This document shows positions 25,399 to 31,097 of a stretch of DNA of 64,000 nucleotides, in pieces. The DNA is taken from assembly GCF_000027125.1 (NCBI RefSeq), contig NC_017626.1. The stretch is one strand, 5' to 3'. Origin of the DNA: Escherichia coli 042 (lineage in GTDB: Bacteria; Pseudomonadota; Gammaproteobacteria; Enterobacterales; Enterobacteriaceae). The notes beneath the pieces are model-generated. The model was not told where the DNA came from. It ran no database searches and saw only the letters and a program-made list of their open reading frames with translations. Positions within the stretch are counted from its first letter, which is position 1. Every line of letters starts with the position of its first letter. The translations under genes were made by a program, and so were the position numbers.

Positions 25399-26306
<908 letters not shown>

Positions 26307-26357
26307 GTTCACGCCGCATCCGGCATGAACAAAACGCACTTCGTCGACAAGTTGGGT

Positions 26358-26388
26358 GCCGGGTTTAAGCCCGGCATTATTTTTATCC
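26358..26388 (+). terminator. Hairpin plus T-tract, plus-strand orientation (possible native srmB terminator displaced by the IS)
   Basis: gccgggtttaagcccggc followed by attatttttat; shares a 16-nt core with the hairpin at 24748-24763. Confidence 0.5.
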
Positions 26389-27264
26389 CGGCAAAAAACA
26401 CTCTTCAACACACTGAATAAAAGTGTGCATCGCCGGGCTAACCGCTTTTCCAGCATGGTGTGCGCACATGGCCGTAATGGTCTGCGACTGTTCGCCAAAA
26501 GGCAATTCAATTAATTCTCCGCTCTCAAGCTCTTTTTCCACCGCAAAGCGGGGCAAGTAACTGACCCCGATATTCGCCGCGACACAACGCTTGATGCTTT
26601 CGATACTTATAAGCTCAATGGTGTTTTCCACCGTGATCCGCCGCTGTCGCAGCGTGCTCTCAAATATCTGCCGGAAGACACATTGCGGTTCGTTGATAAT
26701 AAAGCTACAGGCGTTATGTCTTCCCGGCTCAGTAAAATCGACATCTGCAATTTGTGGTGAAGCCACCAGCACCAGCGATTGTTCACCCAACTCCCGTCGG
26801 TTCAAAGCATCATCATTTCCTACGCGATAAAAGACGCCAACATCGGCCTCATCATTCAGTAGTGCATCACGGATCACGTAACAGTTCAGCGACTGCAACG
26901 ATAAACGCACTTTTGGTGCGCGTTGCCGAAAACGCTGCAACACCTCCGGCATTCGGTAAGAGAGCAACGTTTCGCCCGAAACAACGCGTAGTTCCCCGTC
27001 CGGATCCGACTCTTTTTTGGCAGCCTCACGAAGCGTATCCATCACTCGGGTAAGTTCATAGATGTGCGGCAGCAGCTTTTTTCCTTCGCGAGTGAGGCAC
27101 ATCCGTCGACCAATTTTCTCAAACAACTGTACCGAGAACTCCTGTTCAAGCTGCTGAATATGAAAAGTCACCGTCGATTGTGTACAGCACAATTTTTGCG
27201 AAGCTCGCAAAAAGGAACCCTCTTCCACCACGGTTTTAAGCGTAATAAAACGGCGCAGATCCAT
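26383..27264 (-). CDS. yfiE: LysR-family transcriptional regulator YfiE
   Basis: ORF 26383..27309; start trimmed to MDLRRFITLKTVVEEGSF (293 aa). Confidence 0.88.
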   Translation of the reverse strand: MDLRRFITLKTVVEEGSFLRASQKLCCTQSTVTFHIQQLEQEFSVQLFEKIGRRMCLTREGKKLLPHIYELTRVMDTLREAAKKESDPDGELRVVSGETLLSYRMPEVLQRFRQRAPKVRLSLQSLNCYVIRDALLNDEADVGVFYRVGNDDALNRRELGEQSLVLVASPQIADVDFTEPGRHNACSFIINEPQCVFRQIFESTLRQRRITVENTIELISIESIKRCVAANIGVSYLPRFAVEKELESGELIELPFGEQSQTITAMCAHHAGKAVSPAMHTFIQCVEECFLPG

Positions 27265-27366
27265 AACTCCAAACCTATCAAAAATATCGAATTCAGAATG
27301 TAAAAACATTCATTTTTTTAAATGTTCCGTGTCGGGTACTGTCTACCAAAACAGAGGAGATAACAA

Positions 27367-27954
27367 GTGACACCGACCCTTTTAAGTGCTTTTTGGACTT
27401 ACACCCTGATTACCGCCATGACGCCAGGACCGAACAATATTCTCGCCCTTAGCTCAGCCACATCGCACGGATTTCGTCAGAGTACCCGCGTGCTGGCAGG
27501 GATGAGTCTGGGATTTTTAATCGTCATGTTGCTGTGTGCGGGAATTTCGTTTTCACTGGCTGTTATCGACCCGGCAGCAGTGCATCTGTTGAGTTGGGCA
27601 GGAGCGGCATACATTGTCTGGCTGGCGTGGAAAATCGCTACCAGTCCAACAAAGGAAGACGGACTTCAGGCAAAACCAATCAGCTTTTGGGCCAGCTTTG
27701 CTTTGCAGTTTGTGAACGTCAAAATCATTTTGTATGGCGTTACGGCACTGTCGACGTTTGTCCTGCCGCAAACGCAGGCGCTAAGCTGGGTAGTTGGCGT
27801 CAGCGTTTTGCTGGCGATGATTGGGACGTTTGGCAATGTGTGCTGGGCGCTGGCGGGGCATCTGTTTCAGCGATTGTTTCGCCAGTATGGTCGCCAGTTA
27901 AATATCGTGCTTGCCCTGTTGCTGGTCTATTGCGCGGTACGCATTTTCTATTAA
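27367..27954 (+). CDS. eamB: Cysteine / O-acetylserine exporter EamB (LysE family)
   Basis: 195-aa multi-pass membrane ORF (MTPTLLSAFWTYTLITAMTPGPNN). Confidence 0.9.
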   Translation: MTPTLLSAFWTYTLITAMTPGPNNILALSSATSHGFRQSTRVLAGMSLGFLIVMLLCAGISFSLAVIDPAAVHLLSWAGAAYIVWLAWKIATSPTKEDGLQAKPISFWASFALQFVNVKIILYGVTALSTFVLPQTQALSWVVGVSVLLAMIGTFGNVCWALAGHLFQRLFRQYGRQLNIVLALLLVYCAVRIFY

Positions 27955-27955
27955 C

Positions 27956-27992
27956 GAAAAAAAGCGGAAGAAGTCGCCCTCTTCCGCTTAGT
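27956..27992. terminator. Bidirectional terminator between convergent eamB and grcA
   Basis: agcggaag ... cttccgct hairpin flanked by A- and T-rich runs. Confidence 0.6.
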
Positions 27993-28009
27993 AACTTGCT
28001 ACTTAAGCC

Positions 28010-28393
28010 TTACAGGCTTTCAGTAAAGGTACGAGCGATAACGTCGCGCTGCTGTTCCGGAGTCAGAGAGTTAAAGCGAACTGCATAACCGGATACACGG
28101 ATGGTCAGCTGCGGATATTTTTCCGGATGCTTAACTGCATCTTCCAGAGTTTCACGACGCAGAACGTTAACGTTCAGGTGTTGACCACCTTCAACGCGAA
28201 CTTCTGGTTTCACTTCTACTGGAACTTCACGGTACTCAATGTCACCCAGTTTGCTTACTGCAACCACTTCGTCTTCTGCAAAACCTGCTTTCGCAACGAT
28301 GCAACGCGCTTCGCCTTTTTCGCTGTCCAGCAGCCAGAAAGAGTTCAGCAGATCGTCATTAGCGGCTTTAGTAATCTGGATACCTGTAATCAT
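28010..28393 (-). CDS. grcA: Autonomous glycyl radical cofactor GrcA (YfiD)
   Basis: ORF 28010..28489; start trimmed to [20 protein letters not shown] (127 aa); C-terminal glycyl-radical motif RVSGYAV. Confidence 0.92.
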
Positions 28394-28499
28394 GTGATGC
28401 CTCCCCGGCAAAATTATTGATTTGTTCAGCCTGTCGCGGCCAATTGGTAAAACCATTGTTGCTTGAGTGTATATATACTCCTCAATCACCCTTGATTCT

Positions 28500-28513
28500 T
28501 TGATTTAAATCAA
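28500..28513. promoter_or_regulatory. FNR box (promoter-proximal) of grcA
   Basis: Perfect TTGAT-ttaa-ATCAA palindrome. Confidence 0.75.
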
Positions 28514-28552
28514 TAAAAAACACATATCGAGTGTGGTCACAAATGGGTTTTA

Positions 28553-28566
28553 TTGTTTTACATCAA
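28553..28566. promoter_or_regulatory. Second FNR-like box upstream of grcA
   Basis: TTGTT-ttac-ATCAA, centred 53 bp from the first box. Confidence 0.6.
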
Positions 28567-28696
28567 CTTATGCAGGTGTGAAATTTTACCAATTTACATT
28601 TTTTTGCATGTCTTTTTGTCTATAAAATGAGCATGATTTTGTTCTGTAGAAAGAAGCAGTTAAGCTAGGCGGATTGAAGATTCGCAGGAGAGCGAG

Positions 28697-29386
28697 ATGG
28701 CTAACGAATTAACCTGGCATGATGTGCTGGCAGAAGAGAAGCAGCAACCCTATTTTCTTAATACCCTTCAGACCGTCGCCAGCGAGCGGCAGTCCGGCGT
28801 CACTATCTATCCACCACAAAAAGATGTCTTTAACGCCTTCCGCTTTACAGAGTTGGGTGACGTTAAAGTGGTGATCCTCGGTCAGGATCCTTATCACGGA
28901 CCGGGACAGGCGCATGGTCTGGCATTTTCCGTTCGCCCCGGCATTGCGACACCGCCGTCACTGCTGAATATGTATAAAGAGCTCGAAAATACTATTCCCG
29001 GCTTCACCCGCCCTAATCATGGTTATCTTGAAAGCTGGGCGCGTCAGGGCGTTCTGCTGCTCAATACCGTCTTGACGGTTCGCGCAGGTCAGGCGCATTC
29101 CCACGCCAGCCTCGGCTGGGAGACGTTTACAGATAAAGTCATCAGCCTGATTAACCAGCACCGCGAAGGTGTGGTGTTTTTGTTGTGGGGATCACATGCG
29201 CAAAAGAAAGGGGCGATTATAGATAAGCAACGCCATCATGTACTGAAAGCACCGCATCCGTCGCCGCTTTCTGCGCATCGTGGATTCTTTGGCTGTAACC
29301 ATTTTGTGCAGGCAAATCAGTGGCTGGAACAACGTGGCGAGACGCCGATTGACTGGATGCCAGTATTACCGGCAGAGAGTGAGTAA
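28697..29386 (+). CDS. ung: Uracil-DNA glycosylase
   Basis: 229-aa ORF with UDG motifs GQDPYH and HPSPLS. Confidence 0.95.
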
Positions 29387-29433
29387 ATTTGCGGGAAAAC
29401 GCCGGATGGCAGAGTTACCACCCGGCTGATTTA

Positions 29434-30471
29434 TCAGGCTTTATTCTGACGCCACCATTCACCAAGTAAAACGCCGGTTGCGACAGAGATATTTAGCCCG
29501 GCAACGTTGCCAGTACCATCAATCTTCACGCGCAAATCGTTCGGATCGCGTGCGGCATCCGGTAACCCTTCATATTCCTGACCCAACACCAGCACCATTT
29601 TCGCTGGTAGACTGGTTTTGAACAGCGGTTTACCCTGCTCGCTGGAAGTGGTCACCACGGTGTAACCCGCCTGTCGGAAATCATCCAGCACGTTAACAAT
29701 GTTGTCGCCAGTAATCGGCTGAACGTGCTCTGCGCCGCCTTCTGCGGTACGGATAGCCGCACCCGATTCCAGCAGTGCCGCATCCTGCACCACAACGCCT
29801 TTCACGCCGAAGTGCGCACAGCTGCGCATCATGCCCCCCAGGTTATGCGGGTTAGATTCGTTTTCCAGGGCCAGTACACAATCCTGCGCGCCTGCCTGGC
29901 TTACCCACTGCTGCACGGTTGTACCGTTACGCTTTTTGATCAGGAAGCAAACGCCGCCGTGATGTTCCGTGCCTGACGCTTTTGTCAGTTCCGCTTCATC
30001 CACCACATGGTACGCTTTGCGGTTTGCCGCCATCCAGCGCAAGGCTTCTTTAAAACGCGGCGTTACACTCTGGATAAACCAGGCGCGAACAATCGCTTCC
30101 GGACGGCTCTGGAACAGTGCCTGACATGCATTTTCGCCGTAGACGCGGGTTTCTTCCGCACGCTGACGACGCAAAACTTCCGGATCAATAAAACTTTTAC
30201 CACTTATGCCACCGTGATCGGCCTTTTCCGGCGTCTCATCACCCGGCGCGCGGGAAACTGTACGCCAGGGCGACTCTTCCCACTTGCGGTCACGGGGCTG
30301 ACTTTGTTTGTCATCGCGGGCGGGGCGACGGCCACCGTCAGCACGAGATTTTCCTGGACGCCCGCCCCCTTTCCCGGTACGCGGGTTGTGGGTACGTTTA
30401 TCAGAATCATCATCACTGCGGACATACATCACTTTGACCTTGCCGCTTTTACCTTTCATTTCATCGTTCAT
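29434..30471 (-). CDS. yfiF: SpoU-family RNA methyltransferase YfiF
   Basis: ORF 29434..30546; start trimmed to [14 protein letters not shown] (345 aa); basic Gly/Arg-rich N-terminus, C-terminal SPOUT fold. Confidence 0.85.
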
Positions 30472-30677
30472 GCTTTTCTCCACCAGCGCTGCGCGAAGCG
30501 CGCAGATTACCCGAAGTGCGCGCGGTTCGCCATGATTTCGTACCAAAGCCTGCGACTATCATACCTATTGAATAAAACAGATTGTTGTCTGGAACAATGT
30601 CCCCGATAATATGTAACATATTAGAAACATACCGGCGTCGTTGCCGATAAGTCTCCTTACTCATCCCGAGGTTAGTT

Positions 30678-31097
30678 ATGAATACCGTTTGTACCCATTG
30701 TCAGGCCATCAATCGCATTCCCGACGATCGGATCGAAGATGCGGCAAAATGCGGACGCTGCGGTCACGACTTGTTTGACGGAGAGGTTATTAATGCGACC
30801 GGTGAAACGTTCGACAAATTGCTGAAAGATGATCTACCTGTGGTGATCGACTTCTGGGCACCGTGGTGCGGTCCCTGCCGTAATTTCGCACCAATTTTTG
30901 AAGATGTCGCGCAAGAGCGTAGCGGTAAAGTGCGCTTTGTGAAAGTGAATACCGAAGCTGAACGTGAATTAAGCAGCCGCTTTGGAATTCGTAGCATACC
31001 GACGATCATGATTTTCAAAAACGGTCAGGTTGTCGACATGCTTAATGGCGCAGTACCGAAAGCGCCGTTCGACAGCTGGCTGAACGAATCTCTTTAA
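30678..31097 (+). CDS. trxC: Thioredoxin 2
   Basis: 139-aa ORF with N-terminal zinc-finger cysteines (CTHC..CGRC) and WCGPC active site. Confidence 0.95.

Follow-up and report, generated by a model that had tools for sequence, protein, structure and literature searches.

The grcA (yfiD) promoter in the DNA analysed here, a 64-kb stretch of Escherichia coli 042 (the window), is very probably a class II promoter that depends on FNR and carries, five helical turns further upstream, a second FNR site. The feature is already known in detail: the two boxes are the textbook FNR pair at grcA and not a discovery, and here they serve mainly as a positive control, a characterised regulatory architecture having been recognised correctly from raw sequence, with all checks in agreement. 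The earlier note on this DNA had matched them to the tandem arrangement of a class II site and an upstream FNR site reported for yfiD/grcA, and later papers describe the same sites, geometry and function. This promoter is a classic example of a band-pass (micro-aerobic) response obtained from one oxygen sensor and two sites of unequal strength, and it has also become a part used in metabolic engineering (2023 study). Our additions are modest, namely the breadth over which the spacing and the weak upstream box are conserved, and a different two-box geometry in Pasteurellales. Feature coordinates are collected in Table 1.

Table 1. Features at and around the grcA/ung intergenic region, in window coordinates; positions with a sign are relative to the grcA transcription start.
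Feature	Position	Strand	Details
Terminator-like hairpin and T-run	27962-27989	minus	just past the grcA stop codon; consensus scan only
grcA (yfiD) CDS	28010-28393	minus	127 aa; ATG at 28393; open reading frame list and RefSeq annotation
PdhR operator, AATTGGTaaaACCAtTg	28442-28458	plus	+8 to +24; exact published 17-mer
Predicted three-repeat ArcA site, TGGTAAAACCATTGTTGCTTGAGTGTATATAT	28445-28476	plus	about -10 to +22; sequence identical to the K-12 site
grcA transcription start	28465 (dRNA-seq) / 28466 (implied by published -40.5)	minus	K-12 data mapped to the window
-10 hexamer, TATATA	28472-28477	minus	-12 to -7 from the dRNA-seq start
FNR box I, TTGATttaaATCAA (TTGATTTAAATCAA)	28500-28513	minus	perfect palindromic consensus; centre 28506.5; direct reading and pattern search
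Spacer between the boxes	28514-28552	minus	39 bp
FNR box II, TTGTTttacATCAA (TTGTTTTACATCAA on the plus strand)	28553-28566	minus	one mismatch; centre 28559.5
ung (uracil-DNA glycosylase) open reading frame	ATG at 28697	plus	open reading frame list

Both boxes lie within the 303-bp gap between the divergent genes grcA and ung, upstream of a minus-strand open reading frame that does encode GrcA/YfiD, as had been claimed. Its product is 100% identical to GrcA from E. coli and E. albertii loci, and RefSeq annotates the stretch as grcA and ung in 5425 of the 5426 complete E. coli genomes in which the 801 bp around the boxes were matched. The genes follow one another as in K-12 (yfiE, eamB, grcA, ung, yfiF), and grcA-ung synteny is kept in 78 of the 80 loci of our species-level comparison; the regulated gene is grcA/yfiD, divergent from ung. 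GrcA is an autonomous glycyl-radical cofactor that acts as a spare part for oxygen-cleaved pyruvate formate-lyase.

Direct reading and a pattern search of the whole window (TTGAT-N4-ATCAA, at most one mismatch) both recover the perfect TTGAT-ttaa-ATCAA (box I) and the second TTGTT-ttac-ATCAA (box II) from which the proposal started. Box II reads TTGATGTAAAACAA in grcA orientation, and its mismatch, at 28556, falls in the promoter-proximal half-site. The centres of the boxes are separated by exactly 53 bp, or 5.05 turns at 10.5 bp per turn, so the 53 bp and five helical turns originally given are correct. The search returned five sites in the 64 kb (the two grcA boxes and three unrelated ones) against 2.65 expected, and the site count alone is therefore unremarkable. 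The close pairing of the boxes is rare by chance: resampling the window 1000 times with a first-order Markov (composition-preserving) model gave two sites within 100 bp of each other only 5 times, and 20 000 resamples of the AT-rich intergenic region (37% G+C) contained at least two sites in 26 cases.

The distance of the boxes from the transcription start was taken from K-12 data. The E. coli dRNA-seq survey of Romero et al. 2014 (PMC4681348, Table S2) lists the start RVS_(I)-2714544 (U00096.2), which overlaps a RegulonDB start; this reverse-strand position, 2,714,544, corresponds to 28465, with the genome-version offset confirmed via the box coordinates, and gives grcA a 5' UTR of 72 nt in the window. 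Counted from it, box I is centred at -41.5 and box II at -94.5, as compared to -40.5 and -93.5 when numbered by the primer extension of Green et al. 1998, in the form in which Myers et al. 2013 (PMC3688515) use it. A spacing of 53 bp yields either -40.5/-93.5 or -41.5/-94.5, never -41.5/-93.5; each of the two positions proposed in the earlier note (-41.5 and -93.5) is thus right in one numbering, and the pair mixes two numberings, a trivial fault. With either start, an FNR consensus box is found in the class II position, at about -41.5, and another FNR box about 53 bp further upstream on the same face of the helix. Start mapping, the comparison through which the proposal was to stand or fall, therefore fails to refute it. 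The two start positions, 1 nt apart, are themselves pyrimidines on the transcribed strand (C and T), with A residues at 28464 and 28468; a processed 5' end of the yfiD transcript is attributed to Green 1998. The Cappable-seq supplement has no entry for the grcA locus.

The TATATA hexamer provides a -10 element, and the promoter is without a -35 hexamer because box I sits in its place, the usual arrangement at class II promoters. A simple sigma-70 consensus scan of 27900-28800 found no promoter, which is explained by a hexamer that ends in A and by the missing -35 element, and is not evidence against the promoter. On the other side of the intergenic region, the same Table S2 of Romero et al. 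2014 (PMC4681348) lists a forward-strand start at 2,714,752 that maps to 28673, 24 nt ahead of the ung ATG; upstream of this ung start lie a weak -10 element, TAAGCT (28661-28666, plus strand), and a TTG-containing -35 element (28638-28643).

Alignment shows that both boxes are identical to those of K-12, for which FNR occupancy (ChIP-seq and ChIP-chip) and FNR-dependent expression of yfiD have been published by Myers et al. 2013 (PMC3688515). That study counts yfiD among the operons activated directly by FNR, gives it a site at -40.5, places an FNR ChIP peak at 2,714,605, and marks it "Activated" in the fnr transcriptome comparison in K-12 (Table S8); its value in the aerobic versus anaerobic comparison of Table S12 is 0.11, which we read as an aerobic/anaerobic ratio. 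Among the 187 matrix-predicted FNR sites listed genome-wide in Table S6 are exactly the two grcA 14-mers, 53 bp apart: TTGATTTAAATCAA at 2714579 (U00096.2, score 17.25) and TTGTTTTACATCAA at 2714632 (U00096.2, score 13.87). Each coincides with a ChIP-seq peak, so that the two checks suggested in the earlier note, a matrix scan and a comparison with FNR ChIP data, both come out in favour of its reading, and box II stands above the published matrix threshold by itself. The summit of FNR enrichment (2714605/7) maps to about 28528, between the boxes, at a resolution that cannot separate the occupancy of one from that of the other. Table S6 also flags IHF ChIP-chip enrichment over both boxes. Inspection by eye found no convincing match to the IHF consensus across the two boxes; bending of the spacer could be relevant to contact between the two FNR dimers.

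The published work suggests how such a promoter would operate. As oxygen falls, [4Fe-4S]-FNR dimers would first occupy the perfect box I, at about -41, and recruit RNA polymerase, leading to transcription of the gene for the spare-part protein, which repairs pyruvate formate-lyase damaged by oxygen. Under full anaerobiosis, with more active FNR, the weaker box II, which lies at about -93.5 and faces the same side of the DNA, would also be occupied, and the upstream dimer would then damp activation by the downstream dimer, so that output would peak under micro-aerobic conditions. From the consensus match and the published matrix scores we infer a higher affinity for box I than for box II, and hence that the strong site fills first and the weak site only when active FNR is abundant; this order fits the matrix scores, the conserved asymmetry of the boxes, and the result of Marshall et al. 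2001 as cited. According to later papers that quote them, Green et al. 1998 found activation from the proximal FNR site and down-regulation from the one at -93.5, and Marshall et al. 2001 described the architecture and the micro-aerobic peak of yfiD expression. An independent 2023 study measured much stronger anaerobic output from promoters with box II mutated or deleted than from the wild type. The damping is said to involve the AR1-bearing face of FNR and not the RNA polymerase alpha subunit's C-terminal domain.

Two further regulators would add metabolic and redox inputs over the transcription start, PdhR, which is released by pyruvate, and ArcA. Repression of yfiD by PdhR and its relief by pyruvate have been described, and Anzai et al. 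2020 (Table 1) report a strong PdhR gSELEX peak in grcA/ung at position 2714529, where AATTGGTaaaACCAtTg has 12 of 14 matches; the block conserved among enterobacteria from +6 to +25 is this operator. For ArcA, Park et al. 2013 list two ChIP peaks in their supplementary tables (2714537 and 2714570) together with a predicted site that spans 2714524-2714555. This predicted site and the PdhR box overlap each other as well as the -10 hexamer and the start (28442-28476). Accounts of what ArcA does here disagree: Park et al. 2013 assign a negative sign at the predicted -10/+22 site, whereas Wyborn 2002, as cited elsewhere, has ArcA activating yfiD through anti-repression, by disrupting FNR at the upstream site. 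Co-regulation of yfiD by ArcA and FNR is summarised in the later literature.

To place the pair in a wider context, we scanned for the GrcA protein with one genome per species and obtained 80 loci from Enterobacterales and Pasteurellales, of which the enterobacterial-type set (n=66) comprises 65 fetched loci and the window itself. The box pair is found at 52 or 53 bp in 62 of these 66 (53 bp in 56 loci, 52 bp in six), as compared to 0.05 loci expected from matched resamples. An ungapped profile of 56 enterobacterial loci, anchored on box I, gives 1.66 bits per column for box II, 0.57 for the spacer, 1.70 for box I, 1.59 for the -10 region (-13 to -6), and 1.06 for the block from +6 to +25, with the -10 region at a constant distance from box I across loci. 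Against K-12 the spacer of the window differs at 6 of its 39 positions, with no indel. Judged from these alignments, the length of the spacer is constrained and its sequence free to vary, as would be expected if the boxes had to keep to a fixed face of the helix.

The asymmetry of the boxes is conserved along with their spacing. Box I is perfect in 36 of the 62 loci and box II in none; 55 of the 62 share the same T-to-A deviation at position 11 of box II, which is weaker than box I in 43 loci, equal to it in 18, and stronger in one. The conserved 52/53-bp spacing and the weak upstream box support the affinity-hierarchy model without changing it. It is possible, and we offer it tentatively, that the suboptimal box II is an affinity-tuned "dimmer" kept under purifying selection, and that other lineages rebuilt the logic with a different geometry; behind this idea stand the deviation shared by 55 of the 62 loci, a box II that is never perfect, and a spacing locked at 52/53 bp. 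Within the part of the literature that we covered, no description of such an evolutionary pattern was found. Several loci depart from the common arrangement. A third FNR-like box (e.g. TTGATAATTTACAA) lies ∼43-44 bp upstream of box II in five of them (L033, L035, L041, L067, and L072), three Pantoea loci (L049, L064, and L070) have a single box only, and in Plesiomonas (L076) the pair is 44 bp apart.

The persistent imperfection of box II invites another explanation, that this box is mainly or also a site for a different regulator such as ArcA, and that the imperfection serves that protein. It would fit the statement, cited from Wyborn 2002, that ArcA activates yfiD by disrupting FNR binding, the retention of the non-consensus base in 55 of the 62 loci, and conservation that extends beyond the FNR core, in and beside box II (TAA..TTGAT.TAAAACAA.A.AAT). 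The inner and flanking bases of box I are similarly conserved, however, so box II is no exception in this respect; in the only genome-wide ArcA data both the peaks and the predicted repeats fall at -10/+22 and not at -93.5; and box II by itself scores above the FNR matrix threshold. We consider this explanation unlikely, and prefer to read box II as an FNR site.

An FNR site in a shared intergenic region might instead serve the divergent gene. Box II is centred at about -113.5 from the ung start (window 28673), which is no standard position for activation by FNR at class I or class II promoters; moreover, yfiD appears in the tables of FNR-dependent and oxygen-dependent expression but ung does not, and box II lies between 112 and 300 bp from the ung start codon, depending on the species, while keeping a fixed distance from box I. 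On these grounds we reject a role for box II in ung expression, which we regard as highly improbable, and assign box II to the grcA promoter.

Least probable of all, to a degree that we would call negligible, are two readings that take one or both boxes for something other than FNR sites. One holds that only box I is functional and that box II resembles an FNR site by chance, in AT-rich intergenic DNA; a 37% G+C region in a window where 2.65 one-mismatch sites are expected leaves some room for this, but close pairs are rare in both sets of resamples, box II keeps its distance of 52/53 bp in 62 of the 66 genera-level loci although the spacer diverges, and its published mutation or deletion raises expression, so that conservation and mutagenesis together effectively refute it. 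The other takes the boxes for CRP sites, CRP and FNR recognising related inverted repeats that are told apart by T versus G at the discriminating position of the core; both boxes have the FNR-type TTGA...TCAA and not the CRP-type GTGA...TCAC, neither matches the CRP core TGTGA-N6-TCACA with its discriminating G, and FNR ChIP and FNR-dependent expression are documented for both sequences, so we reject it. Just one TGTG..CACA-like string is present, at about 28531-28541 in the spacer, and not even K-12 conserves it.

The closest known system is the orthologous K-12 yfiD/grcA promoter (Green, Baldwin & Richardson 1998; Marshall et al. 2001), in which both boxes, their 53-bp spacing, the -10 hexamer, the start region, the PdhR box, and the predicted ArcA site are all the same as in the window. 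The two differ, beside the six spacer substitutions, by a cluster of substitutions near 28595-28612 and by one base missing from the grcA 5' UTR of the window near 28417-28418; these differences are neutral-looking, and none touches a mapped site. The synthetic tandem-FNR melR promoters of Barnard, Green & Busby 2003 also combine a site at -41.5 with an upstream FNR site, and a 2024 paper describes sharp repression of tandem-FNR promoters of this kind with the upstream site positioned from -85 to -95, a range that includes the grcA geometry. The synthetic promoters, however, carry two consensus sites in an artificial context, whereas the upstream site of grcA is naturally sub-optimal, and conservatively so. 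In tandem CRP promoters (Lee & Busby 2012, mBio), an upstream related regulator lowers class II output in a position-dependent manner, as at yfiD; upstream CRP represses through contacts with the alpha C-terminal domain, whereas this domain is stated not to be involved at yfiD.

Pasteurellales show a different geometry. In 7 of the 15 Pasteurellales loci (L045, L048, L052, L053, L055, L060, and L066) the 53-bp pair is absent, and two FNR-like boxes 42-44 bp apart lie instead 80-140 nt upstream of grcA (at 1501). After these boxes come a TTGA-N5-TCAA inverted repeat, which is conserved, and an extended -10 element, "TGATAAAAT". If "TGATAAAAT" is the -10 element, the downstream box would lie near -48 and not at -41.5. 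The spacing of 42-44 bp, in Pasteurellales as in Plesiomonas, would by analogy match the second repressive position of the synthetic promoters, near -85.

A hairpin of 12 pairs followed by a T-run lies between the convergent genes eamB (which ends at 27954, plus strand) and grcA (which ends at 28010, minus strand). It likely marks the end of a monocistronic grcA transcript and is plausible as the grcA terminator, perhaps working in both directions. An Rfam scan of 26000-31000 at a permissive threshold retrieved nothing relevant, its one sub-threshold match being snoRNA-like and located within yfiE. The sequence of the window from 28000 to 28800 is matched at an identity of at least 99% in only 46 of 5431 E. 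coli records, most of the records falling at 95-99%; at the grcA/ung locus the window belongs to a minority lineage.
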